A stretch of DNA of 62,399 nt, counting the filler, from Collodictyon triciliatum (Eukaryota), in NCBI GenBank assembly GCA_043381765.1. It is 6 parts of 6 records of this genome, joined end to end, with 100 filler letters (N's around TTAATTAATTAA, not from the genome) between each part and the next. Parts side by side here need not be neighbours in the genome. Positions count along the whole stretch, not along the records: positions 29,210 to 43,707 come from JBHJMP010001809.1; 5 more parts are not named here. One strand, written 5' to 3'. Below are positions 29,110 to 60,554 of the stretch, piece by piece. Position 1 is the stretch's first letter; every line of letters begins with the position of its first letter. Position numbers and translations under genes: made by a program. The notes beneath the pieces are model-generated. The model searched no databases. It worked only from the letters and a program-made list of their open reading frames with translations, and was not told the origin of the DNA.

Positions 29110-29306
29110 NNNNNNNNNNNNNNNNNNNNNNNNNNNNNNNNNNNNNNNNNNNNTTAATTAATTAANNNNNNNNNNNNNNNNNNNNNNNNNNNNNNNNNNN
29201 NNNNNNNNNATGAACCAGAACTTGGTACAAGTTACAGACAATCAACAAATCCATACTTGAATCAACTTGTAAGATTTAAATAATTATTTTTTTATAAAAC
29301 AATTAT

Positions 29307-31074
29307 TTAATAAAGAACTTGGGCGTTGTCTTTTCCGACGTCAAGAATACGTGTGTGCTCAATGATGACCCAGCAGGTATAGTCATCTACAGGGGTCAAT
29401 GACGCAAGATTTGCGGGAACTGGTGCCTCCCCAGCAGCGGTGACAACTGAAGCGTGTTTGCAAGACCCGGCAAACTGAAGTCCGACTTGTACAATTCCAG
29501 AATTTGAAGATGCGTTGTAGCCAGATAATTCAAATTCGTCAGAATAATCTGATCGAGTCATCGACCACCCTAATGCGAACAGAGTCGGAGTTTTCCAAAA
29601 GAATTCTTCACACTCAAGTGGATTTGTGTTTTTATCAGCTGTTGTATTTGCCGTGACAACCATTGCATTCTGAACGGCTTTATTGCTGGCATAATTGACG
29701 CCTGCGCCTGACCGTGGTGTAGTCAATTGAATAATTCCACTATTTGATGCGGCACCAGCATTAATTTGAAGTGGTTGAATTGCTTGTTGTGAGAAGTTGA
29801 CCTGTCCAAGCATCTCAGCACTTGTGTTATATCCCAATGCTTTCATTAAATAATTAAGAGCTTCAGGTTGCTGACACAAAGCTTGACCAACTACTGCACT
29901 TGATAAAAATCCAGACGCCGCAGCTGCCGTGCCAGTAGTATTTTGGCCAGCGGCCGGTACATTGGCATAAGCAGGATTTGCTAGCTGAATAGGAACTGAT
30001 GGTAGCACTTTACCGTTGACTGTTAGTCTTGCTTGAGAAAGTCCCTCAATTGCATGGAGTCGGTCAGTACCTAGATATCCAAGATTACCCTGTTCACAAG
30101 CTCGAGTAAAGATAAGATATATAGCATTGATATTTGAGTATTGAACACTGATGTTTTGTGTGACCCATCCTGAAGTTCTTTTTGGAATATTAAACTGAGT
30201 CATAAAATATGTTTCAATTGGAATCTGTAAATTATTATTTATTAAATATTGTGAAAGGGCATTATTATATGATGGCTCCGTTTGAATATAATTAATATTC
30301 ATTTTTAAATTACTTAAAGTATAACTAAGAGTTGTGTTAGTGCTGGCAGTAAAGTCCAAAAAGTCGAATCCGGTATTTGCTCCATAAGCTAATTGACCTT
30401 GACTAAAGCACTCTGATGCGGGCGCCATCCAAATACGAACTTCGAGACTGTTGGGACCTAGTAAATAAGCAGGCAATAAAGTTTTTATATTCATCAAACC
30501 AAGATATCTAAGCGGAAATCCAATTTGAATAGTGTTACTTTCAGTCCCTGCTGCTCCAACTAAAAACAATCTGGACCTATCAAGAACAGACTGACCTATT
30601 CCCATTCCTCCACTCATAAGATTCACCCAATTCTGGTTATTACACCAATTGTGCTTAAACGACTCAAGGTATGAATAGTTGTCGATTCTTTCCAATTCTG
30701 AGCCATTTAAGTATACTGCAATTCTATAAATAAATGATTCATAACTTTCACACGGGCACAGTATTGGCAATACTCTATTCCCTGCTGTAGCTGTGGATGC
30801 ATCGAACAGACCTCTTTTTAGATTTACGGCATTTGTAACCGTTGCGGCATCTAGTCCTTTTACAGTCAGATCCGCTATGATATGAGCAGAGTCCATTTGG
30901 ATAGACCACTCGTTGTCTATAGGCACCCGAAACACAATTTGCGGGCCTGATGAAAAATTTGCTGTTTGCTCTGTTCCGTTGCTTGGCAAAACCTGGCGTT
31001 GTTGTTTTTCAAGAATAGTTTTTTTTTTTTGACGATACATTTCTAAATTGTAGCTCCTCCGGTAGTGAATCCAT
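29307..31074 (-). CDS. Major capsid protein (double jelly-roll, PLV type); probable start at 31074 with a 1-nt shift in an A12 run
   Basis: Beta-rich 577-aa ORF next to the packaging ATPase, with QIVFRVP, SFIYRIAVYLNGSELERIDNY, LLPAYLL..LEVRI and YTLSNLKMN patterns typical of PLV MCPs. An upstream MDSLPEELQF lies in another frame. Confidence 0.78.
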
Positions 31075-31100
31075 ATTTTTAATAAGAAAATAATTTTTGT

Positions 31101-31511
31101 TTAGTAACCTATTTTATTTCGGATATTGTCTCCATGCGTATTAATGACTTTTCCCAGAGATTCATTTTGTTGACCAATTTTTCGAATTACTGGATCATAT
31201 TTTCGTAGTTGTTCGGCTCCTTTTTCAAATGGCTTTTGGAATTTACTGCCTTCGACAAGTCCTGCCACAGTTGCGCCTTTTTTTCCTTCTGCTAAATCTA
31301 AGCCTTTTTTCACGTATCCTTTATTTGCATTGTACACCTTTAATGCCTGCTCCGACAATCCACCCGTGGCTGTACGAGCCAAGTCACGCAGACCGCCACC
31401 TGTAGCCTTGTCCACTGCATTGACCACCTTTTCACCGACATTCATTCCCTTCCTTACAACTTTGACTGCTCCTTTGAAAAATTTCTTTAAACTTCTGCGT
31501 GTGAATACCAT
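31101..31511 (-). CDS. Small basic virion-associated protein with N-terminal amphipathic helix
   Basis: 136-aa ORF between ATPase and MCP; begins MVFTRRSLKKFFKGAVKVVRKG. Confidence 0.6.
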   Translation of the reverse strand: MVFTRRSLKKFFKGAVKVVRKGMNVGEKVVNAVDKATGGGLRDLARTATGGLSEQALKVYNANKGYVKKGLDLAEGKKGATVAGLVEGSKFQKPFEKGAEQLRKYDPVIRKIGQQNESLGKVINTHGDNIRNKIGY

Positions 31512-31534
31512 ATAATTATATATAAAAAAATCTA

Positions 31535-32257
31535 TTATGTAAGTTCCTCTTCAAAATTTTTAAAATAAAGTTGGGGGTTTGCATTACATACAACATACAG
31601 AAAATTATATTTTTCCGCTGTGGCATATGTATAGAACTCTTGAAATTTTTCTTCAGACAAATCTATAATATCCTCATAAATAGATTTTATCTCGTTTTTT
31701 GATTTTGACCTATACATTATAAAATGCGTAAAATTCGTTCTGTGTATTCTTTGAAAGTATGTAAACTTATGTGAAATCATAATTATACTTAGATGCAAGT
31801 GTCGAGACTTTAAAATTAATTTAGTCAGCTGGGTATGCCGGATGCTTTTCAGCTCATTGGCCAAGTCATCGATTATCAGCAGCGCTCTGAAATCCTCCTT
31901 CTCGAAATCTTCGTCACCTTCTACATCCTCCTTTATATATTCTGCTACTTCATTATTTATTGTCTGAAAAACACGCTCCTCTGAAAATTCAATTGAGTCC
32001 AGGGACTTGTCGTAGACCTTACCTTCATCAGTGACATTTGGACTACAAAAATAAATTTTATTAAATACCTCAAAATAGTGCTTTCTAATTAAATTTGCGT
32101 ATAGTGTGGTTTTACTTGAGCCTGTAGGGCCAAGGACACCCATTATAAAATTTCGAGTGGAAATATCCGGCAATGGAAACGGAATTCCAAAATCCCGAGT
32201 TTTTTTAGATTTTGTCAGTGGTGCTATCTTTATATTTGATACGCGTTTCGTATTCAT
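31535..32257 (-). CDS. A32-like (FtsK/HerA) genome packaging ATPase
   Basis: Walker A GPTGSSKT, Walker B LLIIDD, arginine-finger KSRH, IIMISH, RTN and C-terminal YNFLYV..YFKNF. Confidence 0.9.
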   Translation of the reverse strand: MNTKRVSNIKIAPLTKSKKTRDFGIPFPLPDISTRNFIMGVLGPTGSSKTTLYANLIRKHYFEVFNKIYFCSPNVTDEGKVYDKSLDSIEFSEERVFQTINNEVAEYIKEDVEGDEDFEKEDFRALLIIDDLANELKSIRHTQLTKLILKSRHLHLSIIMISHKFTYFQRIHRTNFTHFIMYRSKSKNEIKSIYEDIIDLSEEKFQEFYTYATAEKYNFLYVVCNANPQLYFKNFEEELT

Positions 32258-32278
32258 TATTATTATCTATAAAAAAGT

Positions 32279-32461
32279 ATGTACGAGCTTCTAATTTATA
32301 TAAATGAAAATTTAGTTCATCAGGGTGTATATGATGATTTGGACGATTTACAAAACTATATATATTATCTAGAAAAGTTTCATAGAAAAGAAAAAAATAA
32401 TAGAATTTATAAAATCAAGTCAAAAATGCTTGACGAAAAAATAATTGTTTCATTTAATTAG
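32279..32461 (+). CDS. Small hypothetical viral protein
   Basis: 60-aa ATG ORF that exactly fills the space between the ATPase and the left inverted repeat. Confidence 0.45.
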   Translation: MYELLIYINENLVHQGVYDDLDDLQNYIYYLEKFHRKEKNNRIYKIKSKMLDEKIIVSFN

Positions 32462-32463
32462 AA

Positions 32464-32673
32464 TTTATTCAACAACCCAAAAACCCAAAATGTCCCAAAA
32501 TGTCCCAAAATCCCAAAATTCCCCAAAAAATTTTCCAAATAGAAACCCCCTCAAGATTTTTTTTTACACAATGAAAAAAAAAATACAATGCGCGATTTTG
32601 TATTTCCCATTTTTTTTGGGATTTTTTGGGACATTATAATAAAATCTGGGACCCTCTCCCCATCCTTTTTTTT
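32464..32673 (+). repeat. Left copy of ~200-bp internal inverted repeat
   Basis: Reverse complement of 37354-37553 apart from a few substitutions and one extra TGTCCCAAAA unit. Confidence 0.95.
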
Positions 32674-32739
32674 TAATTGAGAAAACGCATAAAAGTAATT
32701 TAAAAGTAATTTAAAAAGATTTTACTAAGGTTATTTAAG

Positions 32740-35232
32740 ATGTCTTTAGCAATTGAAATACAAGTTTGCCAAGACGATATAATCGAACTCTGCAAAACAG
32801 AGCGATTTATAAGTCAACCAACAAATGTAAAAAATGCTCTGATTTTTTTTAAAAAGTCAGTTGTCGATGGTGTGGTAAAAGTTGAGTACAGTCAAAAAAA
32901 CGAGGGCCGATTTTGGGGCAAACCAGATATCAATGCGCTACCGAGATGGATTAAGCAGACACTCTTACATCAAAAATATAGTGATATTGATATATCGAAT
33001 TGTCATCCAAATATTCTTTTAAAGTTGTGTAACAAACATAACGTAAGATGTGAAGCGTTAAAATACTATTGTGAAAATCGAGACCTATGTTTGACTGAGA
33101 TAATGGATTTATACAAAATCTCTAAAGCAGATGCCAAAGACCTATTCAATATTATGAATTTTGGCGGCGGATTCAATACTTGGACTGAAGACAAAAAAAT
33201 TGTAAATGCAGTTGAATCTGAATTTATAAAGACATATTATGAAGAAGCCAAGAGAATCAAAGAACAATTTGTAATTATCCCAGATTACAAAAGATTTTTT
33301 GATATGGCCAAAAAAGAAAAAGACAACCCCTATGAAATTTTTAATAGTGGTATGGCTTTTATAATGCAACACTACGAGTCTGTTTATCTTGTCAAAGCAC
33401 TGGAACTTGTAAAAAATACAAATATGTATATCCCAGCTCACGATGGTTTTTATTTACATAAAGACCGATACAAAGCTATGGGTCTTGAAAAATTTATAAA
33501 AATGATAAATGAATATGTAGATGAGCCAGGTATTACTTTTATTCACAAAGAAATGAACGAGGCAATTGACCTCAAGACAGCGGATAAAGTAAATATTAAT
33601 TTCTGGGACTCATTTGATTTATATAATATCGCAACCGAAATTATAAAGAAAAAAACATTGACTGCTTCTAATGGTGTTTTATACATGTATAATGGTGTTT
33701 TTTGGGAAGCTGACACACCTGAAAAAAACTATTCACTATTTTCAAAATTTTGGAGTGAAAACTATTATTATGTCATTTACGATTTAATGAAACAAGCATT
33801 TGGTATAAATGAAGAGCAAAGTCAATCCAATAAAAAAATAAATAAAAAAAAAAAGGGTAAAGACTCGGCGCCAACTGAATCTGAAAAGGCTGAAAATGAA
33901 AATACAAAATCAATTGGACTACATCAAAAATCGTGGGAAAGACAATTAGCTAATTCACGTGTGTTTCATTTTAGACCTCTTGTAACGCTAGTTTTACAAA
34001 GACTCGAAAACTCGTCATTAAGGTTTAATGAAATACCTTATTTATTTGCCTTCAACAATAGAATATTTGATTTAAGAATTAATAATTTTATTGAACCAAA
34101 ACCAGAACAATATATATCCGAGACCTGTGGATATAATTATGAAAATGATGAAAATTTAGAAAATAAAAAAACTTATCTGATGTCAATATTCAAAACAATT
34201 CTACCGGAAGAATATGATCTCGAACTTTTTTTAAAATATTGCTCGACAGGTCTAAGTATGACACTCATAGAAAAAATATGTTTGGCACACGGGTCTGGAC
34301 GAAATGGCAAAGGACTATTTCAAGAATTCAACAAAATAACACTGGGAAATTATTTTTATGCATTAACTCCAACTAGTATACAGTCAAAATTAAAAGATGG
34401 TTCGAATCAAGCTTTAGCAAATATTCAGGGCAAAAGACTCATTGTAACCTCGGAGCCAGACCAAGACCAAAAAATAAATACTAGTATCCTAAAGCTACTC
34501 ACAGGCTGCTCTGTTATTAATGCCAGAGCTCTTTATTCAAAGCAAACAGACACTCAAAATTTTGGAACTTATATTTTAGAGTGTAATAGCAAACCTAAAT
34601 TAGATGTTGTCGAACAGGCTATTACACAGAGACTATTTGTAATTCATTTTCCAATAAAATTTATTGAAAAAGAAGTTTATGAAAATTTAGAAGAAAAACA
34701 AGGGTATGGAATAGTTAATCCTAAATATAAAGACTTTGATTTTTTGAAATCATATAAAATCGCATATTTTCATATTTTAGCTGATGCATATCAAAATTAT
34801 ATTAAAAATTCATCATTTTTATTACAACAAGGAAGTCGGTCACATTTAATTACAGAAACCTATTTTCAAGACTCTGATGATTTTACCAGTTGGTTTTACA
34901 CAAATTATAAAAAAGTTGAAACTGATGATGAAATATTAATTTCTTTATCTGATTTAAGAAAAGAATATATAGATTATAAAAGACAATTTGAATTTAAATT
35001 TGAAATAAAAATTGGAACATTTTACGAAAAAATGGCATCGTGTCCTATGCTTTGTAGATTCATAAAACATAGAGATACATATTATAAAGGGCAAAAATTA
35101 AAAAAGCCTACGATTATTGGACACATAAAATTGAATTCGCAAGAAAAAGAAGATGTTGAAATGGAAAATGAAATAGGACAAGAACCTCTTAAATGTGAAG
35201 AATCAAAACCACATTTTGATTTCAAAAAATAA
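32740..35232 (+). CDS. PolA-like polymerase/primase (TVpol) fused to D5-like SF3 helicase
   Basis: PolA-like motifs DIDISNCHPNIL (A), AKDLFNIMNFGG (B) and PAHDG (C). D5 N-terminal FAFNNRIFDL, Walker A GSGRNGKG, Walker B IVTSE, motif C LECN, RLFVIHF. Confidence 0.87.
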   Translation: MSLAIEIQVCQDDIIELCKTERFISQPTNVKNALIFFKKSVVDGVVKVEYSQKNEGRFWGKPDINALPRWIKQTLLHQKYSDIDISNCHPNILLKLCNKHNVRCEALKYYCENRDLCLTEIMDLYKISKADAKDLFNIMNFGGGFNTWTEDKKIVNAVESEFIKTYYEEAKRIKEQFVIIPDYKRFFDMAKKEKDNPYEIFNSGMAFIMQHYESVYLVKALELVKNTNMYIPAHDGFYLHKDRYKAMGLEKFIKMINEYVDEPGITFIHKEMNEAIDLKTADKVNINFWDSFDLYNIATEIIKKKTLTASNGVLYMYNGVFWEADTPEKNYSLFSKFWSENYYYVIYDLMKQAFGINEEQSQSNKKINKKKKGKDSAPTESEKAENENTKSIGLHQKSWERQLANSRVFHFRPLVTLVLQRLENSSLRFNEIPYLFAFNNRIFDLRINNFIEPKPEQYISETCGYNYENDENLENKKTYLMSIFKTILPEEYDLELFLKYCSTGLSMTLIEKICLAHGSGRNGKGLFQEFNKITLGNYFYALTPTSIQSKLKDGSNQALANIQGKRLIVTSEPDQDQKINTSILKLLTGCSVINARALYSKQTDTQNFGTYILECNSKPKLDVVEQAITQRLFVIHFPIKFIEKEVYENLEEKQGYGIVNPKYKDFDFLKSYKIAYFHILADAYQNYIKNSSFLLQQGSRSHLITETYFQDSDDFTSWFYTNYKKVETDDEILISLSDLRKEYIDYKRQFEFKFEIKIGTFYEKMASCPMLCRFIKHRDTYYKGQKLKKPTIIGHIKLNSQEKEDVEMENEIGQEPLKCEESKPHFDFKK

Positions 35233-35499
35233 AAAAAATAAATTGATTTTTATCAAAACAATTTATTTATCTTTAACCAGTTCTCGTTCTCGTTTTATTT
35301 TCCTCCGTTCTGCATATTTTGGGTTGTAAGCGTCTGCATATTGTTTTTTCTTTTTCCATACTTCGACAATGTGTTTAATTTTATCTGATTGAAATCCAAA
35401 TTCTGTCAGGCATCGAAGCTCAAATTGAGGGTCCATTATTATATTCTCTTATAAAAATCTTTTTAAGCCCTATTTAAAAACAATTTGCTGTAGATAATT

Positions 35500-35982
35500 A
35501 TGGCTCCAAAAATCACGCAAGAAATCAAAGACAAACTACCTGAGGACTATAGTTCAGCTGATTGGGAACCTATCGATCCAGAAGATATTCAAGTAGGTGA
35601 TTACATTGCATATGTTGCTAAGGCCCGAAAATATATGTCTGGAAAAGAGGATGCTGGTGGATGGAAGAAAGGAGGATTGATAAATGCTATTCCAAATATG
35701 GACGAACAAATGCGACGCAAGGCAAACAATGATAAGGTGTTTTTCTTCAGGGCTTACGCTGTTCAATGGTCTGTTAACCAAGACAATGTATTGATGTTTT
35801 TCAAGTCAAAGAAAGACGTCGATGAGGTTTTAGCCAAGGGAAGGAAACGAGCCAGGGATACCAAAGAAGAAGGACGAATTAACAAACTGAAATTTGACAC
35901 TGAAAAACTGGAGGAGCAACTCGAGCAAGTCAGCAAGGAAGAAAAGAAGCCTGCACGCCGCGGCCGACCACCCAAAAAATAA
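35500..35982 (+). CDS. Hypothetical protein with C-terminal AT-hook (RRGRPPKK)
   Basis: 160-aa ORF with a core GDYIAY...KKGG...WSV and an RGRP motif at the extreme C-terminus. Confidence 0.65.
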   Translation: MAPKITQEIKDKLPEDYSSADWEPIDPEDIQVGDYIAYVAKARKYMSGKEDAGGWKKGGLINAIPNMDEQMRRKANNDKVFFFRAYAVQWSVNQDNVLMFFKSKKDVDEVLAKGRKRARDTKEEGRINKLKFDTEKLEEQLEQVSKEEKKPARRGRPPKK

Positions 35983-35990
35983 AATTACCT

Positions 35991-37196
35991 CTACAACTTA
36001 TTTCTTCGAGCAGCCCGTTCAGCCCGACTATTTTTTTGATTTTCTGATGTCTCTTTATTAAATCTAAATAAATCTGATTCTAGTAGACCACTAGCGCCTT
36101 TCATCTGTCTACCTTTATTATTTTTTAAAAATTCATCCAAGTCGTCCTGTTCAGCAAATTCACTTAGTAATTGCGATTTTGGTTTAAATTTTTCAACTTT
36201 GGTATCTTCTGAAAGAAGCAGCAAGTCCGCACGACCAAACTTTTTATTTTCTAAATTATCTGTTGTTTCGAGGGTATAATATGGAAGTTGCCATTGTGAG
36301 CTTGGTGTACTTTTTTTTTTAATTTTATAAACTTCGAAAGACCACTTGGGTAGATATCCCTTCTGTTTTTTAATTTTATTTTTCATACTTGCCGGAATAT
36401 CAGTTTTTTCTAAAAGCACTCTGACTTTGTTACCAGGCTCTAGGTCTTTTAATGAGCCCTGTTCTCTTTTTTTGGAGTTGTAATTTTCCATATTTTTAAT
36501 TATTTGTTCCTTGTATTCGGGAAGTAATGCAACAGCAGGGGCTACTTTTGTGTTTTTGTTGGGCTGTAGATTCAGACTGTCCAGAAAACTCTGTAGGTCT
36601 GGAATGGGGTCGTTTCCAGTTTTTTGTTTATATCCGTAAAGCGCTCGTTTCAGGGTGCCATTTTTGCGTTCTATTTGACTTTGACTCGTGGGTGTTGCCG
36701 ACTTGCTTTTAACGTGAGTTATATTTTGTTTTTCTAGTAGTGAGGCCACTTGGTCTTTAAATTCATTACCGTTGTCTGACTGTATTGTTTTAACCAATTT
36801 ATAAGAATTAATAAATTTTCGAAGTTGCTCAGCGACATCACTGGCTTTTAATGATTCGAGTGGATACGCCCATAATTTGCGTGTGTATATATCTGTACAA
36901 GTTAAAAGATAATTTGCATCTTCACTGTCTAGATTTTTTATATCGATAGTGTCAATTTGGACATATCCAGGCTCGAACCGCATAATTGTATTTGTGTTTT
37001 TAGATTTTACCGGTCTTTGTAAAATTTGCCAGTCTGGTTGAGACCTAATAAACTTATCAACATACGAACGAGTAATACCAAATTCACGCACTGCTCTAAA
37101 CAGACCGTCTCGAGAATTAGTATGTTTTGGTGATTTATAAAATACCTCGTTAATCTTGGCTTGCCATTCGTTTCTTGGGAGGATTTTCGTTTCCAT
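35991..37196 (-). CDS. Retroviral-type (rve, DDE) integrase, Polinton-like
   Basis: Catalytic triad in QIDTID, SDNGNEF and QIERKNGTLK. Also DIYTRKLWAYPL, a Polinton-like N-terminus (FY..P...LF......ITRSYVDKFIRSQ..WQ) and C-terminal KWSFEVYKI. Confidence 0.92.
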   Translation of the reverse strand: METKILPRNEWQAKINEVFYKSPKHTNSRDGLFRAVREFGITRSYVDKFIRSQPDWQILQRPVKSKNTNTIMRFEPGYVQIDTIDIKNLDSEDANYLLTCTDIYTRKLWAYPLESLKASDVAEQLRKFINSYKLVKTIQSDNGNEFKDQVASLLEKQNITHVKSKSATPTSQSQIERKNGTLKRALYGYKQKTGNDPIPDLQSFLDSLNLQPNKNTKVAPAVALLPEYKEQIIKNMENYNSKKREQGSLKDLEPGNKVRVLLEKTDIPASMKNKIKKQKGYLPKWSFEVYKIKKKSTPSSQWQLPYYTLETTDNLENKKFGRADLLLLSEDTKVEKFKPKSQLLSEFAEQDDLDEFLKNNKGRQMKGASGLLESDLFRFNKETSENQKNSRAERAARRNKL

Positions 37197-37341
37197 TTCT
37201 TAATTTTTCTTTAGATAATAATCTACGTTCGATAAAGTGGTGGACAGTGCTGGCAAATGGCTCAACTTCCTTTGAGTAATCGAGTTTTTTCACTTTTTTT
37301 TTCTTTTCAACTTTTGATTTTTTATATTGTTTTTGTTTCAT
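37150..37341 (-). CDS. Small lysine-rich protein upstream of and overlapping the integrase
   Basis: MKQKQYKKSKVEKKKK...; the ATG lies immediately inside the right inverted repeat. Confidence 0.4.
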   Translation of the reverse strand: MKQKQYKKSKVEKKKKVKKLDYSKEVEPFASTVHHFIERRLLSKEKLRNGNENPPKKRMASQD

Positions 37342-37353
37342 AATTGTATATAG

Positions 37354-37553
37354 AAAAAAAAGGATGGGGTGAGGGTCCCAGATTTTATTATAATGTCCCA
37401 AAAAATCCCAAAAAAAATGGGAAATACAAAATCGCGCATTGTATTTTTTTTTTCACTGTGTAAAAAAAAATCTTGAGGGGGTTTCTATTTGGAAAAATTT
37501 TTGGGGAATTTTGGGATTTTGGGACATTTTGGGATTTTGGGTTGTTGGATAAA
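37354..37553 (-). repeat. Right copy of ~200-bp internal inverted repeat
   Basis: Reverse complement of 32464-32673. Confidence 0.95.
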
Positions 37554-37569
37554 ATTTCTTGGTGACATT

Positions 37570-40500
37570 ATGGGTAAAAAAGATATCAAAACTCCTATCA
37601 AAACTCCTAGTAAAACAACACCAGGTAAAGTATATACTGGAAGTGCTGTAAGAACACGAATGGCAGAAGAAAAACAACAAGAAGAATATGCAAAATTAAG
37701 AGAATCTCAAAGGCAAGAAAGAGAAGCTGAAGAACGATTAAAAAAGTCTATAAGTGAACAAGACTATCGACAACAGTATTTCGAAGATTATTTTGAAAGA
37801 TCATTGAAAGGTAATATATACGATGCCAAGGGGGGGCAAATTAGTAATTTTGGGGATTTTTTTGTTGCTTTGGCAACAATGAAAACTTCAACAAAACGTC
37901 TTAATTTTCAACCAAAAACAAATGAATTTTTAAAGAGTGGAATAATAAAAGATATGTTGGTTAATTTGGTACCTGAAGAATCCAAGAGTGCGTTTGATAA
38001 GGTACCTTGGACAATAAACACAATATGGCACGTTTTTAATGCAACTCCAATAAAAAAACTAGGTAATGAAATAACATTTACTACAGACCAAGAAACGAAT
38101 GACGTTTGGTTTAATGAAATGAAAGAGTTAGCAAAACAACAAAGTAGAGGGGCTACACCGACTTTATCACGCAGACCATCTGCTGTAGCTGAATCTGCTA
38201 ATGTAAAAATGGAAATTCCGTCAGCAGACCAAATGAGTCGAATGCTTGCTGGCACAAAAAGTAGGCCAGGCAAAGCACCAGTCGAAGCTCCTTCGGCTTC
38301 GCAACCAACTAAATCACCTCGAAAATCACCAGTTAAACCCGCTTTCCCCCCAACTCTTGACCCAAATACTGGGATAGATACTAGAAATCCAACACCTACA
38401 AAATCACCTCGAAAATCACCTGTGAAACCCGCTTTTCCTCCAACTCTTGATCCAAATACTGGGATAGATACTAGAAATCCAACACCTAAAAAGTCACCAG
38501 CTCCACCAGCCAAATCACCCGCAAAATCAACTCCAAAAACGCCAGTTAAACCTGCTTTCCCTCCAACCCTCGATCCAAATACTGGTATAGATACCAGACT
38601 TGCTACACCCGGAAAATCACCTGTTGAATTATTAAAAGCCAAACTAGATCAAATAACAAAAGAAAAAGTTAAGGAATTTAAGGATGAAATATCAAAAATA
38701 AGCCCACAAGTCAAAGTAGATAGTCCAACTCAACAAACAGAAATTCCACTTAGTAGAAGAATACTAGAATCAGAAACACCTGCAGGTAAAGCAAGGCAAA
38801 AAAAAGTTGAAGAAGCGAAAAAAAAAATGGCAGAGGGCTCACCACCTCAAACAAATATATGGTCACCACCTAAATCTGATTCTCCAATTAAAGTTGACAC
38901 AAGTCCACCAAAGAGCGCAAGCCCAAAACCTATAACATTACCAAAACCCAAATCACCAGTCAAAGATGTTATTGAGCCATTTAAACATTTTACTCCCACC
39001 AAAGAACAAGAAAAAAGTCCAGTTGTTGAAAAAGTTATTGCTGAATTGCCTGTAGATGAATTGCCAAAAAGATACACTCCATCAGTATATAAATCCAAAT
39101 TATATAATGATTACAGACAGCATTTAATGGATTTATGGATAAAAGATGCAACTCGTTATTATTCAACAACACCAAGACCAAGTATTGTTAGTTTTCTAGA
39201 ATTTTTAAATTCATTTTTAGCATTAAAAACTGATGTTGATGACAGAGTAGCTACTCAAAAATTTAATATAAAAAAATCGAGATTTTTATTAAACGATTTT
39301 TCACAATTATTTTTTCACAAGGCTTTTGGGATAAGAATGCCTGATATTGATAATGAAGAAGATATTGTTGACGATGATTTGGTTATGGATCTTAATCCAC
39401 TTGTATTAAATAAAGAATCATTAAAGCCTCTTGTAATTGAACGATTTATAAATTATTTAACTGAAATTACCCCGATGCAAAAAGTGCGAAATAGAAATAT
39501 AGCTGCAGAAAGAGAAGCAGCCATTGAAAAACCACCAGAGGTTCAACCAAAAAAAAAACCAATATTAACAGATCTTGAATTAGAAATTGCACAAAAAACA
39601 GGAGAAAAAATTAAAAAGGCTCGAGAGCTTGCAGAAAAAAAAGCTGAAGAAGAAAGATTAGAACAACAGGCTAAAGAAGAAAGAATTAGAAGAATGGCAG
39701 AACAACAAAGAGAAGCTGAACGAGAAGCCGTGAGAGCAAGAGACCAAGCAGAGCGCGATGAAAGAGAAGCATTTTTAAAAATACCAATTTTTAGTAGATA
39801 TTTATATAATGAAGATGAGGATTTATATACTTTTATTAGTGAATTTGACATAAAAAAAGATATAGAAAGATTAAGCGCTCGTAATAGAATAAAATTTTTG
39901 ACAATATGGTATGATGAATTTGCAAAGGTATTGTATCACTTAAAATATGATGTTACTCGAGATAATTTAGGTTGGAATTATTCAACTTTAGATATTATAA
40001 ATAATGAAGAAGACTATAATAAATTTAAAAATATTTATCAAAGAGTATTTCAAGAAATTAATGAAAAATATGATGTTTCACCTATAGGAAAAGTATTTAA
40101 TATATCCAAACTTGAATTAGATATTATAAAAGAAATTAATCAAGATATGTTAAATCAAAGTCAAGAAAGATTTAACACTCAAGATGATACTAGTGATGTA
40201 TCAATGAAAGATAAAACTATTCAAGGAGAATCATATGATGAAGAATTAAATATTACCAGTAATATTACATTTGATTTAAAATATGATATAAACACATATT
40301 TTGATGATGATGAACAAAAAATAATAAATATGATTCATAATCCAAATACCTCATACCTTGATGTTTTTGTAAATGATGAAAATAATCAAAGAGCAATGAA
40401 AAAAATGTCTTATGATTTAATCATACGGGTTAAAAGACTAATAGAAAGTTATACAGATAAATTATATAAAAAAATTAATCCAAATAATTATAAGATTGGA

Positions 40501-40860
40501 AAGTCTATAACATTTAATTTAGATAAAAAAAATACAATTATATTTTTGAGCGCATATGCAATTTTATGTTCTCAATTATCTAGTAATTACGATGATTTAA
40601 ATCAATCGATTAAATTATGGCTTTTGGCAATTAAAAATTATAATCAAAAAATAAATCAAATATATGATAGTGTTCAACCAAGTGAATTTGATTTGAAACA
40701 AACAGCAGTTAATGAGTCTATAAATGAATTAACTCCAATTCAAAAACGACAATTTAATCAGGTGATTAGGCAAACGGCAGCCCCAATAAATCAAAATAAA
40801 TATTTATATATTATTTGGTTGGATAATCAAAAAACGCGGTATATTGGAATAACAAAATAA
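37570..40860 (+). CDS. Large S/T-P-x-K-rich, coiled-coil hypothetical viral protein (~1096 aa)
   Basis: First ATG at 37570 (the TTG start at 37489 lies inside the IR). Internal 30-aa repeats KSPRKSPVKPAFPPTLDPNTGIDTR. Confidence 0.8.
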   Translation: MGKKDIKTPIKTPSKTTPGKVYTGSAVRTRMAEEKQQEEYAKLRESQRQEREAEERLKKSISEQDYRQQYFEDYFERSLKGNIYDAKGGQISNFGDFFVALATMKTSTKRLNFQPKTNEFLKSGIIKDMLVNLVPEESKSAFDKVPWTINTIWHVFNATPIKKLGNEITFTTDQETNDVWFNEMKELAKQQSRGATPTLSRRPSAVAESANVKMEIPSADQMSRMLAGTKSRPGKAPVEAPSASQPTKSPRKSPVKPAFPPTLDPNTGIDTRNPTPTKSPRKSPVKPAFPPTLDPNTGIDTRNPTPKKSPAPPAKSPAKSTPKTPVKPAFPPTLDPNTGIDTRLATPGKSPVELLKAKLDQITKEKVKEFKDEISKISPQVKVDSPTQQTEIPLSRRILESETPAGKARQKKVEEAKKKMAEGSPPQTNIWSPPKSDSPIKVDTSPPKSASPKPITLPKPKSPVKDVIEPFKHFTPTKEQEKSPVVEKVIAELPVDELPKRYTPSVYKSKLYNDYRQHLMDLWIKDATRYYSTTPRPSIVSFLEFLNSFLALKTDVDDRVATQKFNIKKSRFLLNDFSQLFFHKAFGIRMPDIDNEEDIVDDDLVMDLNPLVLNKESLKPLVIERFINYLTEITPMQKVRNRNIAAEREAAIEKPPEVQPKKKPILTDLELEIAQKTGEKIKKARELAEKKAEEERLEQQAKEERIRRMAEQQREAEREAVRARDQAERDEREAFLKIPIFSRYLYNEDEDLYTFISEFDIKKDIERLSARNRIKFLTIWYDEFAKVLYHLKYDVTRDNLGWNYSTLDIINNEEDYNKFKNIYQRVFQEINEKYDVSPIGKVFNISKLELDIIKEINQDMLNQSQERFNTQDDTSDVSMKDKTIQGESYDEELNITSNITFDLKYDINTYFDDDEQKIINMIHNPNTSYLDVFVNDENNQRAMKKMSYDLIIRVKRLIESYTDKLYKKINPNNYKIGKSITFNLDKKNTIIFLSAYAILCSQLSSNYDDLNQSIKLWLLAIKNYNQKINQIYDSVQPSEFDLKQTAVNESINELTPIQKRQFNQVIRQTAAPINQNKYLYIIWLDNQKTRYIGITK
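38308..38598 (+). repeat. Coding 90-bp tandem repeat (2 full copies plus 1 partial)
   Basis: Visible at DNA and protein level; differences between the full copies are mostly synonymous. Confidence 0.9.
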
Positions 40861-40876
40861 TTTTATTTACATTTAT

Positions 40877-42322
40877 ATGGCACCAAAACAAAGACAAAAA
40901 AATCCTGATGCATTCAAAGAAAGGCAAGCAAGAAATAGAGCTCAGGGTACTACACCAGCTAGGACTGTTGCAGAAGTGGCTCAACAACAGAGTCCATTCG
41001 TAGGATTTGCTCAATTACAACCGGCTCCAGTTAGTTCAAATTCAACTTCACCGCAAGTAGTACCTACACCCGCTAGAAAACCAATGTCAAGAGTAGGTTC
41101 TCCAATGGATCTAATGGGTACATTTTTTGTTAGTGACGATGATATCTTTGCTTCTTCTTCATTGCCTCGACCCCCAGGGCCTCCACCTACGAGTCCTCCA
41201 TTCCAGAGTCCTTTACCCGGTCAGCAAATATTTGGACCCGCATCAGCTGTTCCAATGGCTACAATTCTAAACACTGCTCAAAATCCAGACACAAATCAAA
41301 ATTTATTTACATTTGGGTCACCTGCAAGACAACCTGGAATAAATGACCCATTAAGAATAAGTCCAGCTAGACCTAGTTCAGTTAAAAGTCCAGGTGTAGC
41401 AGGTGCTGTTCCTCCTTTTGCTAGATATCAACCGACAATAGCAGAGGTAAATTCTCCATCGGTAAGAAAAGCTAGAGAACTTGGAGCTACAGAAAAATCA
41501 CCAGCCTCGGCCGCAGATTCACCATCTACTCCAGTAGAAGCACCAAAACTAAACAGAGCGGAAAGAAGAGCCAAAGCAAGAGCAGAAAGAGAAGAAGCAG
41601 ACCGTATATTGGCAGAATCATTGGAAAGAGATTTAAACACAGCACAAACTATTAATGTAGGTAGTATATATGAATCTGCCCGAGAGCCACCAGGTGGAGA
41701 CCCTGATGACCCAGAAGTGGGTGTTGGACAAGGTGGGCCTGCTATTGAGTTAAATCTAAATGAATTTACAAAAGCAATAGCAAACGGTTTTAGATTGGCC
41801 CAGGGTGACTTATATTCTATGGCATCAACCGAGCCAGGTGATTATACATCAAATACAAAAAGCGCAGCTGTTACAGATTTTTATGCCAAAATAGATCCAG
41901 GTATGCCAACTGAACAACGTAGGAGTATAATATTAGAAGAATTTAATAATATTGGAGCTGTTTATGCTGCTTCTCCAAATGAAACTAATATGGATTTACT
42001 TAGGCGCCTAGATTTTGTTAGAAAAATGCAAATTCAAAATCAAGCATTTGCCGATTATCGAAATGGTATTAGTCGTATAGAACCAGGATTTACACCAACA
42101 TCAATGTTTACAAATGAAAAAATACTGGGTACAGCTTTTAATGGAAGTCCCACATCAAAAGTTGTTAGATTTACAAATGGTATTTCGGAAATAAAAATAA
42201 TAGGGGACGGCAATGGTCGATATTATGGAGTACAATCTGGAAAAAGATTTGGCCCTAGAAAATTTGATGAGATAGAACGCTGGGCATCATTAGGTGGATT
42301 TGAAGCAGATGAATTGAAATAA
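40877..42322 (+). CDS. Pro/Ser-rich hypothetical viral protein (481 aa)
   Basis: Long intact ORF 16 nt after the previous stop. Confidence 0.75.
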   Translation: MAPKQRQKNPDAFKERQARNRAQGTTPARTVAEVAQQQSPFVGFAQLQPAPVSSNSTSPQVVPTPARKPMSRVGSPMDLMGTFFVSDDDIFASSSLPRPPGPPPTSPPFQSPLPGQQIFGPASAVPMATILNTAQNPDTNQNLFTFGSPARQPGINDPLRISPARPSSVKSPGVAGAVPPFARYQPTIAEVNSPSVRKARELGATEKSPASAADSPSTPVEAPKLNRAERRAKARAEREEADRILAESLERDLNTAQTINVGSIYESAREPPGGDPDDPEVGVGQGGPAIELNLNEFTKAIANGFRLAQGDLYSMASTEPGDYTSNTKSAAVTDFYAKIDPGMPTEQRRSIILEEFNNIGAVYAASPNETNMDLLRRLDFVRKMQIQNQAFADYRNGISRIEPGFTPTSMFTNEKILGTAFNGSPTSKVVRFTNGISEIKIIGDGNGRYYGVQSGKRFGPRKFDEIERWASLGGFEADELK

Positions 42323-42377
42323 TTAAAAAATTATATGAAAGTGCTAGTCAATCCTCATTTATTGAAAACTGTTGTAT

Positions 42378-42869
42378 TCAAGGCACGGAAATTGTAACAT
42401 TATAAAAATTATCAACCATTTGTTTCCTAAATGCCACAGCGTCTTCAATATTTTGAAAATATTTTTTATGATATGTATATTTAGCAGTACAATAACTAAC
42501 TTGAAATTTTCCATTTTTTTTAATTTTTGAAATACCTCCATAGTTTGTATTTGAATTAAATTTTATACGATTACGTGCATTCATTGATTGATTAACCCAT
42601 CGCAAATTAGTAGAATTATTATTTAATTTATTACCGTCAATGTGATCAATTATATTGTATAATTCAGGACAAGGGTTCGAGACGTGTACAATGGCTACAA
42701 GTCTATGTATCAAATAATATTTTTTACATAATTGAATTTGTTTATAACCCTTGTTGTGTTTTTGAGTTTTTAAAATTGAAAGTTTGTTATTTCTTACATT
42801 TCCAAAAGTACTTATCTCATATTGAGCACAAAAGGGAATAGGTTTATATAATTCTTCATTTAAAGACAT
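42378..42869 (-). CDS. NUMOD4 - HNH endonuclease with AP2-like C-terminus
   Basis: YEISTFGNVRN (NUMOD4), IHRLVA, IDHIDGNKLNNNSTNLRWV (HNH), GISKIKKNGKFQVS...YFQNIEDAVAFR (AP2-like). Confidence 0.88.
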   Translation of the reverse strand: MSLNEELYKPIPFCAQYEISTFGNVRNNKLSILKTQKHNKGYKQIQLCKKYYLIHRLVAIVHVSNPCPELYNIIDHIDGNKLNNNSTNLRWVNQSMNARNRIKFNSNTNYGGISKIKKNGKFQVSYCTAKYTYHKKYFQNIEDAVAFRKQMVDNFYNVTISVP

Positions 42870-42909
42870 TATACTAACTTATATAAATACCTTTAAGTAT
42901 CTTTGCAAG

Positions 42910-43320
42910 ATGACTACACAAACATTTCAAATTACTACCAATGATTACAGCGTCAAAATTCAATATGATGGTCAATTAATTGGTCCATTTACCAAACTTG
43001 AAATTCGCTTCATAAAAGAAGATGTGAAAAACATTAAAGTTGAATGGGATGGCCTGAATCTCAAGATGATAGTTGGGAGGAAAACTGAAACATTTACAAC
43101 TGATGCGTTTAGCTGTTTTTCTGCACATCTAAGATATGATGTCGAGGATAATTACCAAGGCCACCTGGATGCTACTCTTAGCTGTCTTTTTTTGGTTATG
43201 AGGCCTGAGGACTCTCCTAATAGAAGAGCGTGGCTTTTCGCGAGAGAAGAGCTAAAACCATTACTGGTTAGTCTGCTCTGCTATATTCTCAAGCGTCACC
43301 AAGATGATATACAACAATAA
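42910..43320 (+). CDS. Hypothetical viral protein (136 aa)
   Basis: Intact ATG ORF divergent from the HNH gene. Confidence 0.6.
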   Translation: MTTQTFQITTNDYSVKIQYDGQLIGPFTKLEIRFIKEDVKNIKVEWDGLNLKMIVGRKTETFTTDAFSCFSAHLRYDVEDNYQGHLDATLSCLFLVMRPEDSPNRRAWLFAREELKPLLVSLLCYILKRHQDDIQQ

Positions 43321-43355
43321 ACTGACACCACAAAATAAATTTTTTTCAATTTTTA

Positions 43356-43548
43356 TATTCCACATTTGGTATATAAAAATTTATTATTCCACATTTGGTA
43401 TGAATTAAATTATTTATATTCCACATTTGGTATGAATGCAGGGAAATAAGTATTAGGTCAGTCGTCGAGAATTAGGGCGAGGTACCGTACTCGCCATATA
43501 TGGTATGAATGCAGGGAAAGAAGTTATCGGTCAGTCATCGAGAAATAG
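43356..43548. repeat. Sub-terminal direct repeats of the viral element
   Basis: TATTCCACATTTGGTAT at 43356, 43385 and 43417. A ~48-bp unit TGGTATGAATGCAGGGAAA...GGTCAGTCRTCGAGAA at 43428 and 43501, separated by a GGCGAG...CTCGCC hairpin. Confidence 0.9.
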
Positions 43549-43560
43549 AAAAAGGACGTA

Positions 43561-43608
43561 AAGTGACATAATTATATTATTAATATTAATAATATAATTA
43601 TGTCACTT
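43561..43608. repeat. Perfect 48-bp palindrome
   Basis: AAGTGACATAATTATATTATTAAT|ATTAATAATATAATTATGTCACTT; the two 24-nt halves are exact reverse complements. Confidence 0.97.
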
Positions 43609-44682
43609 GCCACCTGTGCCCAGTAGGAACACACAACCCATCAGCCGGTCAAACATCTTGCCTTATTTGCGAAGCAGGAACATATAGTCCATCCGTTGGC
43701 TTAAGCANNNNNNNNNNNNNNNNNNNNNNNNNNNNNNNNNNNNNNNNNNNNTTAATTAATTAANNNNNNNNNNNNNNNNNNNNNNNNNNNNNNNNNNNNN
43801 NNNNNNNTGTTTTATTTTATTGTTTTATTTTATTGTTTTATTTTATTGTTTTATTTTATTGTTTTATTTTATTGTTTTATTTTTCCCTGCACTTTTCATG
43901 TTCTACGAAACGAAATATCCGCGTACCCATTCGTTCATTTTTAAAATGTTATTACATGATATATTCATATCTAATTTACCTCCAATCCCACACCCCAGGG
44001 CCCCAGAAACAGAATGGTTATCTGCCAGTCGCGACAACTGCCATTGAGGGCGGCCATGAAGAGTACGGCCAGGGTGCTTCTTCACCAGAACATGTGCTTT
44101 CAGCCGACTCCGCCCAATCTCGCCTTGCATAGTGATGTAAGCCTACGAATCCCTCTCTTCTACTACCAGGATTCTTTCGCTTCTGTTCGGCATCGTGGTT
44201 GCATTCCGACGGTTGAGACATGCTCATATTCGAAAAAGACAACCCTATCTCGAGTCCTGACCTGCTTGTGGGGCCCAAGCAAATTAATAAACCCATACAT
44301 CTGCATATGACCCGGTTGTGCGGTATCATTATCAAGGGTCAGGCAAGGAAGAGGAAGAGAGAATGGGACAATAAATCACCACAGCGCGACTTGGAATGCT
44401 ATTATAAATCTACTAACAGTATGGGGAATGTAAGATCAAGTGCCGTTTTTTCATGCTTCGCTTTGGCTTTTTCACATTACCTTGCTGTCCACACGCTTAC
44501 AAGGCTGCTTTCCGGGTCACCTCAAAAATTGTGATCCTCATAGGTGTATTTTCCTTTCAGTCGCTCACAACCAAACACGATGATAATAATTATAATAAAA
44601 ATAAATAAAAAAAGCACCTCAAGCTCAAGCTTAAACACCGGACAGGAAAGGGAGGAAAAAACCGGAGAAAAGAAACAGAGTC

Positions 44683-57852: not shown

Positions 57853-58687
57853 AGTATTACTGTACTGAATCGCATTCTCTGTGGAATTTTTTTTTTTTTC
57901 CGTCTCTGGATGTTGGATACCATGTTTTTGACGAGCAGACTTTGTTATTGCTCTAGAATCTGGCGAAGATATAAGTCCCATCCTCTTTCCACCCTTGTAC
58001 ACGGAGGTCGTTGCCAATTACGCGCCACCCCCAGAATAGAAAGCTCTCACTACGAAACAACACGTCATCGTTCATTAATTTGACGTCATATAAACTCATC
58101 ACTTAGCCACACTCTTTTATTCAGAATATATTTCAAAGAAAAAGTTCAAATTAGTGAACTACATTTACATATGCGGAAATTTCAACATCACAAACGCAGC
58201 ATATAACCAAAATAATAAATTAATAAATTCCACTAATGGAAATATTATTCTGGACGCCAATTATTTGCTCCTTTGGCAAGGATTTCCGTTGTGTGGTGGA
58301 GGCATCATTGTTCTCCTTCGACCGCTTTTGTCGGGGCAGCAGAAATGATCTGAAAGAACCCAAGAGACAAAAAAACAAAAACAAAAACAAATACAAATAC
58401 AAATACAAATACAAATACAAATACAAATACAAATACAAATACAAATACAAATACAAATACAAATACAAATACAAATACAAATACANNNNNNNNNNNNNNN
58501 NNNNNNNNNNNNNNNNNNNNNNNNNNNNNTTAATTAATTAANNNNNNNNNNNNNNNNNNNNNNNNNNNNNNNNNNNNNNNNNNNNGCCTCCAGCTTATCA
58601 AAGTATTCTTTCAGTTCCTCAAAAGTAGAAAAAGAGCAGTTTCCACCGTCCGTGGTATATAGTCGTAGCATATCTAAGACTAGATAT

Positions 58688-59796: not shown

Positions 59797-60554
59797 ATGG
59801 ACAAAGCGTTTTACAATTTATGTTGATTCGCGAAAACCGAGACGCGGCAGTATCGCAGACTTTAATTTTTCGCAACGACACAGAACAGGTACGTGTCCGG
59901 TACAAAGCAAAATCGGATTAGAGCGCATCCAGATACCGACATGCCGTACACAATGTCACATCCCCAACAACGAGTTATCCTTCCTTTGCCAAGTCGGAGC
60001 AGACAGCCCCGTTTCATAAATGTGTCACTTGAAACTGGATTACACCATCAATGGAAAATAGTCAGTGGACATTAGAACAAAGTGAACGCAGCCACGGCAT
60101 CCCAGTTAGCTAATGCAGTTGTTCAGTTTCATTTCTTACCGGCAAACAGAAGATTGCTATCAAAAGGAGACGGAGCATTCAATCTCATATCAATTGTTTG
60201 TGAATTCGTCGACGTGTCGGACCTAATTGGGCTGACGGCCAATCTATCATTCAATACGTCTTTTGTGGAGCTACAGAATACGGTCAATATTCGACCTTTT
60301 GATTATGTGTACCTGGTCAGCCCGAACATTCAGAGTTCGAGCTTTGCCAGCAACATAGGCGGCAATGGCATCATCGCAAAAATACCGCTGACTCTTGGTT
60401 CACGGTACTNNNNNNNNNNNNNNNNNNNNNNNNNNNNNNNNNNNNNNNNNNNNTTAATTAATTAANNNNNNNNNNNNNNNNNNNNNNNNNNNNNNNNNNN
60501 NNNNNNNNNTTACAAGACTATTCGTTTATGCTGCGTGTAATTCCCGAGGAATAA
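59797..60554 (+). pseudogene. Minor capsid (penton)-like protein, frameshifted and interrupted by a spacer
   Basis: N-terminal FTIYVDSR..GSIADF, then DYVYLVS...IIAKIPL and, after the gap, LQDYSFMLRV..*. These are recurring PLV/virophage penton patterns. Confidence 0.68.

Follow-up and report, generated by a model that had tools for sequence, protein, structure and literature searches.

A perfect 48-bp palindrome that probably marks the right end of a polinton-like virus in a Collodictyon triciliatum assembly

A perfect, AT-rich palindrome of 48 bp probably marks the right end of a polinton-like virus (PLV), which is present as one incomplete scaffold in an assembly of Collodictyon triciliatum. 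From the inside out, the end region would begin with the last gene, whose stop is at 43320, pass into a 200-bp array of repeats that all point one way (43348-43548), and finish with the 48-bp AT-rich palindrome itself. The non-coding end region comprises about 290 bases, counted from the stop through the palindrome, and the palindrome begins 240 nt past the stop. Immediately outside it, the scaffold continues for 99 bases in what appears from its sequence to be a cut piece of a cell-type gene. These features, together with the viral genes, are listed in Table 1.

The stretch of DNA that was analysed, here called the window, is 62,399 bases long. It consists of six separate scaffolds chained by linkers of the form N44-TTAATTAATTAA-N44, so features are not readable across the linkers. 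The initial annotation spoke of one contig. That frame had to be given up, and the contig of the palindrome is 29210-43707 only (14,498 bases). This scaffold has no similarity to the other five in the window, which carry ordinary eukaryote genes, for example those for a WD40 protein and a Roc-COR GTPase. Judged by its gene set, the scaffold is that of a PLV. It starts inside the virus, where the first bases hold only a short frame fragment, and the left end is therefore absent. A replicase 97% identical to the one encoded here (P0003) lies on a contig of 24.9 kb, from which it follows that roughly 10 kb of the virus may be missing. The P0003 contig was sought in viral_contigs and genome_contigs and was absent from both; the sole match in genome_contigs was weak and came from an archaeon (L002). 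At the other extremity the host-like flank runs into the scaffold end at 43707, and nothing past that position belongs to the scaffold.

Table 1. Features of the window, in order of position, with the linkers last.
Feature	Position	Strand	Basis or remark
Viral part, polinton-like virus	29210-43608		gene content; G+C 33.4%; X1 coverage at 97-99% identity
Candidate major capsid protein, 577 aa	29307-31040	-	language-model features
Packaging ATPase, Pox_A32 family	31535-32257	-	Pfam PF04665, E 7.5e-15, 55.5 bits (cut-off 22.8)
Replicase, 830 aa: conserved N-domain and D5-type superfamily 3 helicase	32740-35232	+	Pfam D5_N, DUF5906
ORF, 160 aa	35500-35982	+	tail to tail with the rve integrase
rve-type integrase	35991-37196	-	Pfam PF00665, E 3.5e-11, 43.7 bits (cut-off 32.6)
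ORF, 1097 aa, no known family	37570-40860	+	tandem repeats at 38304-38622
HNH endonuclease with NUMOD4 motif	42378-42869	-	Pfam HNH_3, E 1.2e-8; NUMOD4, E 8.7e-7
ORF nearest the end, 136 aa, no known family	42910-43320	+	non-coding end region begins after its stop
Subterminal repeat array	43348-43548	+	tandem 32-nt units, two 55-nt repeats, 13-nt core
Perfect 48-bp AT-rich palindrome	43561-43608		centre between 43584 and 43585; candidate fold-back end of viral DNA
CACTT, common to the outer right arm of the palindrome and the virus-free form of the flank	43604-43608		X4 record 31
Fragment of cell-type cysteine-rich repeat gene	43609-43707	+	Pfam Ephrin_rec_like, E 6.1e-8, 32.8 bits (cut-off 23.1)
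Linkers	14501-14600, 29110-29209, 43708-43807, 58486-58585, 60410-60509

The palindrome consists of AAGTGACATAATTATATTATTAAT followed directly by its own exact reverse complement. The arms are 24 nt long, the spacer is 0, and the symmetry stops at 24. The exact 24+24 structure without a spacer had been claimed from inspection, and the region does equal its own reverse complement, the match ending precisely at 24. The G+C content is 12.5%. The 24-nt arm is found only at the two sites of the palindrome in the whole window, with 0 expected from 100 shuffles, and it had 0 matches in viral_contigs. Five spacerless palindromes with arms of at least 9 nt are present in the window, and the other four are homopolymer or TA runs with arms of at most 10 nt. 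In simulated sequence, arms reached at most 14 nt when the scaffold was modelled (200 Markov runs) and at most 13 nt when the local AT-rich stretch was modelled (2000 runs). These simulations and shuffles place the palindrome far beyond chance. Among the 25 longest inverted repeats listed for the scaffold, it is the sole palindrome. As DNA, it is predicted to form a single unbranched stem of 22 pairs (-17.5 kcal/mol).

The repeat array is separated from the palindrome by 12 bases. It begins with 2.9 tandem units of 32 nt (43348-43437) and includes two repeats of 55 nt (43421-43475 and 43494-43548), which are spaced 73 nt apart and are 85% alike. A core of 13 nt, CCAYATWTGGTAT, occurs four times, at 43360, 43389, 43421 and 43494, always in a single orientation. 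Outside the array, the core is absent from both strands of the window. A longer, 19-nt form of the core has three matches in the array and one match with 3 mismatches in another scaffold (0.06 expected). The one-way repeats are probably binding sites for a viral replication or integration protein. Between the two 55-nt repeats lies a small G+C-rich hairpin (43476-43495; GGCGAG, an 8-nt loop, CTCGCC). An 18-nt form of the repeat core also led to a locus, L001, that was considered as a relative. It was rejected as a chance match with no further similarity.

Near-identical words of 42900-43707 are present in public sequencing runs; the 20 runs listed come from 15 studies and are mostly from freshwater, and no RNA run holding this stretch is among them. 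The contigs (not the raw reads) of four public runs, X1 to X4, were compared with the scaffold. X1 covers the whole virus (30 of 30 depth bins) in pieces 97-99% identical to it, with 1-46 other letters per listed piece. It is without 24 nt at 38839 and 18 nt at 38923, so the X1 virus is another strain, and the length of this region, which lies in the 1097-aa ORF, differs between strains. Record 8 of X1, a contig of 294 nt that aligns over its full length, spans 43305-43599. Its stop is the centre of the palindrome plus 15.

The position of the stop is informative. A graph of words was simulated at k=31, which we take to be the word length of Logan contigs, and with what we take to be their rules of graph clean-up. 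A stop at 43599 is expected where the DNA finishes with the palindrome or folds back at its centre. Where the right arm is followed by other DNA, the contig stops at 43590 instead, and this includes a mixture of free and joined forms. Presumably the clean-up could clip a short dead end past the palindrome, measuring a few tens of bases at most. For the scaffold, the k=31 logic predicts pieces 38459-43590 and 43579-43707. A positive control is provided by a 181-nt inverted repeat of the virus, within which the X1 and X3 pieces break symmetrically at 32607 and 37420, as the k=31 logic requires. The contigs of this one run indicate that X1 viral DNA ends or turns back at the centre of the palindrome, with nothing else joined to it at comparable depth.

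Records running over the scaffold ends were counted in all four runs: X1 has 0 (right end), X2 has 0, X3 has 0 and X4 has 1. On the left side, record 1 of X1 extends roughly 1.5 kb past 29240. In X2 the contig already stops at 43573, in agreement with neither of the predicted positions (43590 and 43599); this stop could be fitted only after the fact, by arms of 41 nt or a terminal inverted repeat (TIR) of 65 nt. The X4 record (record 31, 151 nt, depth 2) agrees with 43604-43707 with 0 differences and continues for 27 letters past the scaffold end, and it has 20 unlike letters before 43604. We infer that it represents an 'empty site', that is, the virus-free form of the flank. Together, the X1 virus that lacks the flank and the X4 flank with another left neighbour fit a boundary between 43603 and 43608. 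Polinton tips read 5'-AG...CT-3'. The tip here can be placed only within 43603-43608, so such a boundary is not fixed to a base. The proposal of the initial annotation that the palindrome lies at the right terminus is thus supported: the X1 contig stops at 43599, no X1 contig goes past the right end, the flank is of cell type, and in X4 the flank is differently joined. The depths of the X1 records (13.7 for record 8 and 9.6 for record 7, 21.1 in total at 43337) were also considered as a sign of a two-copy terminal repeat. This was discarded because copy number is not readable from the depths of contigs when the sample is mixed.

The flank differs from the virus in composition, with a G+C content of 50.5% in its 99 bases (43609-43707) vs 33.4% for the rest of the scaffold. 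One reading frame stays open between 43593 and 43707, where the scaffold ends. It lacks a start codon, and its first cysteine codon begins at 43608. The peptide repeats the pattern C-x2-C-x2-G-T-[HY]. It has 4178 matches at E <=0.001 among 1.84 billion representative proteins, at 37-50% identity, and the 150 matches listed are mostly repeat proteins of 1000-6500 aa. A degenerate pattern of the peptide had 0 matches in metagenome_contigs. By these sequence criteria the flank is a cut piece of a cell-type gene. The description of the flank as host-like is thereby supported, given an Ephrin_rec_like match above the cut-off, relatives among repeat proteins and the G+C content. Two other views of the flank were rejected. 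It is not a viral gene, as X1 has the virus and no record overrunning the right end, and it is not an exon that starts at the palindrome, as no AG directly precedes the frame.

The join to the cell gene can be considered separately. The balance tips slightly towards a real insertion of the virus; otherwise it is a chimeric join. A true junction contig that breaks after 99 bases would be explained by the flank coming from a highly repetitive gene family. An assembler would also be expected to discard a chimeric link of low depth in most cases, and not to keep it as 99 end bases. If it is no chimera, the join would tie the virus to the cell genome of this assembly.

One rival leaves the end in place and changes only how it was joined. 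On this view a broken cell gene would have become attached to a free viral end, linear or hairpin, through the CACTT microhomology and not by the integrase, either in the cell by end joining or as a chimera of the library or the assembly. This is compatible with the palindrome being the end, and we hold it as a tentative possibility to which we give somewhat less than even weight. The palindrome closes with the same 5 letters with which the virus-free flank of X4 begins, and microhomology needs no coincidence to account for them. The reading with an integrase and a target-site duplication (TSD) needs 5 chance letters in the palindrome or in the X4 match, a coincidence of about 1 in 1000 by our own calculation. 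The occurrence of the virus without the flank in X1, and of the flank with another left neighbour in X4, also agrees with joining by microhomology. On the other side, the element encodes an rve integrase, an overlap of 5 bp would equally suit a TSD, and the depth of the X4 record is only 2. Terminal palindromes lie directly beside TSDs in related elements, according to a recent preprint (bioRxiv 10.64898/2026.07.28.741278). The suggestion that the palindrome is also the end used by the integrase meets a difficulty: the shared CACTT fits microhomology joining better than an integrase TSD.

The palindrome could instead be internal to the virus, as a replication origin or a transcript-end hairpin. 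In that case viral sequence would extend past it, and the scaffold would have arisen as a chimera or by rearrangement at a fragile palindrome. Repeats beside an AT-rich palindrome are the classic layout of an origin. The end region here has that layout, which could be recognised by a helicase-replicase. In relatives with the same type of replicase, long spacerless palindromes are internal and intergenic (arm of 32 in L038, 22 in L030, and 18 and 16 in L005). One of the two in L005 is 25 nt past a gene end and the other is 150 nt before the replicase gene. One relative is classed with direct terminal repeats, and its genome may be circular. However, X1 has no second path at the outer edge of the palindrome (the stop is at 43599, not 43590) and no record past the right end. 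The palindrome is also 240 nt past the last stop with the repeat array between them, and no other gene end of the scaffold has a comparable hairpin. We consider an internal palindrome distinctly unlikely.

The distant relatives neither support nor refute a terminal palindrome. The loci retrieved with the replicase alignment (80 from IMG/VR) are from relatives only 21-29% identical and are mostly fragments, and the outcome is neutral for this reason. Among 86 ends of IMG/VR contigs, one has a palindrome with arms of at least 12 nt within 300 nt (L014, arm 13, loop 6). TIRs were not found within the available parts of the nine loci that share the N-domain of the replicase. Some of the internal palindromes of the relatives have features of their own. 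Those of L005 (1375-1410 and 8180-8211) are related copies, each beside a repeat of about 170 nt, and their flanks are not mirrored. That of L038 (8127-8190) is a perfect intergenic palindrome of 64 nt, and its flanks are not mirrored either.

An artefact made in this assembly only, by an amplification or assembly fold-back chimera, is scarcely credible: spacerless inverted joins are typical of displacement-amplification chimeras, and this one is on a short scaffold of a fragmented assembly, but in the independent X1 strain a contig crosses the left arm and goes exactly 15 bases beyond the shared centre before it stops, as the palindrome requires, and the arms end after 24 bases on both sides with no long inverted duplication.

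With the palindrome taken as the end of the virus, a route to replication can be proposed. A single strand of the end would snap back into a hairpin of 22-24 bp with an extendable 3'-OH. Replication would start from it without a protein primer and would pass through head-to-head or tail-to-tail junctions, which would have to be nicked or resolved. Given that the palindrome is the end, we regard this sequence of snap-back, start without a protein primer, and junctions needing nicking or resolution as slightly short of an even call. Alternatively, the end may be a covalently closed hairpin, in which case the 'right arm' would be no more than the opposite strand continuing around the tip. The centre would then be the one meaningful feature, and the arms would measure 24 nt because of the point at which the flank became attached. 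We give about equal likelihood to a discrete terminal repeat of 48 bp and to a closed hairpin tip, and the contigs fit both. We know of no established account of how replication starts in PLVs and virophages that are without a protein-primed polymerase.

The replicase is a candidate for the enzyme that would extend such a primer. It matches PHROG families of DNA primases, down to E 8e-28. Its helicase part has a confident predicted fold over residues 430-800 (pLDDT 75-95), and GxGxNGK is invariant in this part of the replicase alignment. The N-domain has pLDDT <50. It is conserved in 12 sequences, a set that includes two near relatives and nine IMG/VR contigs, with D82, D84, N87, K133, G143, D235 and G236 invariant. 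Pfam gave no match in the N-domain in any of the ten N-domains scanned. A profile of ten N-domains, compared with 177,635 PDB sequences, had DNA polymerase I (7r0k_A) as its best match, at E 0.99, and the alignment spans the AK..F....GG stretch of motif B. This is a hint that the N-domain is possibly PolA-like, of the 'TVpol' type. The 'PolA-like polymerase' of the initial annotation must mean this N-domain; the best PDB match is indeed a DNA polymerase I, and at E 0.99 it lends the name weak support. Fusions of PolA with a superfamily 3 helicase ('TVpol') are described as common among PLVs and virophages in two studies (PMC12220804, PMC3671162). The scaffold pairs a replicase with a fused D5-type helicase and an rve integrase, and no protein-primed DNA polymerase (pPolB) was seen on the 14.5 kb.

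The Pfam scan covered 10 ORFs of 100 aa or more on the 14.5-kb scaffold, of which three large ones match no family at all. No pPolB family was found among the 10 ORFs of this part of the genome, the left part being missing. No protelomerase or telomere resolvase family was found among them either, within the incomplete 14.5-kb part, which agrees over that scope with the earlier remark that no protelomerase is visible. The scan of the 10 ORFs also gave no HUH/Rep family on the scaffold. The HNH_3 and NUMOD4 matches both exceed their cut-offs, and some 700 bases separate their gene from the palindromic end. The gene may be mobile, of the homing type, or it may encode a candidate nickase that resolves hairpin turn-arounds. 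A combined scheme is conceivable, in which the virus is a dsDNA 'rolling hairpin' virus: the tip, snapped back or covalently closed, would prime a PolA-like replicase with no terminal protein involved, the HNH/NUMOD4 protein would resolve the turn-arounds, cell DNA would capture the end via microhomology, and the integrase would go unused. As a whole we consider this scheme unlikely.

Terminal hairpins are known from other viruses. Parvoviruses have ssDNA genomes with terminal palindromes of 100-500 nt, which are T- or Y-shaped, and an HUH nickase. By analogy, the end described here would resemble theirs in being a terminal palindrome able to self-prime, which implies a site-specific nick for the turn-around. 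Unlike theirs, its predicted stem is unbranched, no HUH protein was seen, and the sole nuclease near the end is the HNH/NUMOD4 protein. The hairpins of poxviruses, African swine fever virus (ASFV) and chloroviruses are AT-rich, incompletely paired and present in flip and flop forms, and these are large viruses with their own resolvases. A hairpin telomere that is read through becomes a palindrome centred on its tip, and replication proceeds via palindromic concatemer junctions. The present end is like these telomeres in being the AT-rich end of a linear dsDNA, and unlike those of the poxvirus type in that pairing is perfect over its 48 nt and neither a resolvase nor a protelomerase was seen on the 14.5 kb. 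Hairpin telomeres of these three groups are mentioned in two papers (PMC11296320, PMC12747079).

The closest parallel is in Halocafeteria seosinensis. According to that preprint, of July 2026, palindromes are found at the tips of TIRs, beside TSDs, in four subtypes of endogenous virophages and one PLV subtype, and the palindrome is 52 nt long in one subtype (bioRxiv 10.64898/2026.07.28.741278). The palindromes go preferentially with replicases other than pPolB and with particular rve integrases. The tips are proposed there to fold into hairpins that prime replication, with parvoviruses cited as an analogy; accidental annealing at single-strand breaks is given as an alternative. The virus described here is like the Halocafeteria elements in having a tip palindrome of about 50 nt (52 there, 48 here) beside cell DNA, an rve integrase and a non-pPolB replicase. 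It differs from them in what is seen of its ends. In Halocafeteria the palindromes are in TIRs at both ends, beside TSDs, in complete integrated copies, whereas here the right end only is seen. The junction here, unlike theirs, shares 5 letters with the target, and CACTT could be a 5-bp TSD or a microhomology. The hairpin-priming mechanism of the initial annotation is already in print as a hypothetical model, for which this virus is a new case. Hairpin priming would be plausible at the virus end as well.

The proposal that terminal palindromes act as primers dates only from 2026 and was based on integrated copies of a single protist; the present virus is a second, unrelated case. It adds a different host setting and a virus that is widespread in freshwater runs. 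Further, one freshwater metagenome gives a sign that viral DNA outside the chromosome, in non-integrated form, ends or folds at the centre of the palindrome.

Polintons, or Mavericks, and PLVs are described as ending in TIRs of hundreds of bp, with TSDs of 5-6 bp made by the rve integrase (PMC12220804, PMC12747079). The virus is like them in having an rve integrase, capsid-like and ATPase genes and an insertion beside a cell gene. It differs in that no pPolB was seen on the 14.5 kb. A PLV 'end module' of inverted repeats, a primase-helicase and a recombinase has also been described (PMC11296320), and repeat-bracketed replicase modules, possibly mobile, are reported in a further preprint (bioRxiv 10.64898/2026.10.13.758929). 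The present virus is similar to both in having its replicase and integrase together within a 181-nt inverted repeat. Unlike the end module, the bracketed module is internal here (32493-37534), 6 kb from the palindromic end.

The copies of the 181-nt inverted repeat (32493-32673 and 37354-37534) are 98% alike, and a weaker symmetry reaches 32464 and 37553. The repeat brackets the replicase, the 160-aa ORF and the rve integrase, and the capsid and ATPase genes lie outside it. No TSD was found at this repeat by eye. Short telomere-like repeats, CCCAAAA/TTTTGGG, are present at its outer ends.

The 577-aa ORF is a lead for the viral capsid protein. Its language-model features score 0.98 (220 of 256 shared) to the capsid clusters Capsid_N, Sputnik MCP and DJR-like. 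It has no match in Pfam, PHROG or PDB sequences and no relative in viral_contigs, and an AlphaFold model made without an alignment had a pLDDT of 31 and was unusable. The ORF at 40877-42322 has no relative in metagenome_contigs, and the feature search gave no usable match for it. The 1097-aa ORF contains three tandem copies of about 100 nt, which encode units rich in Pro, Lys and Ser.
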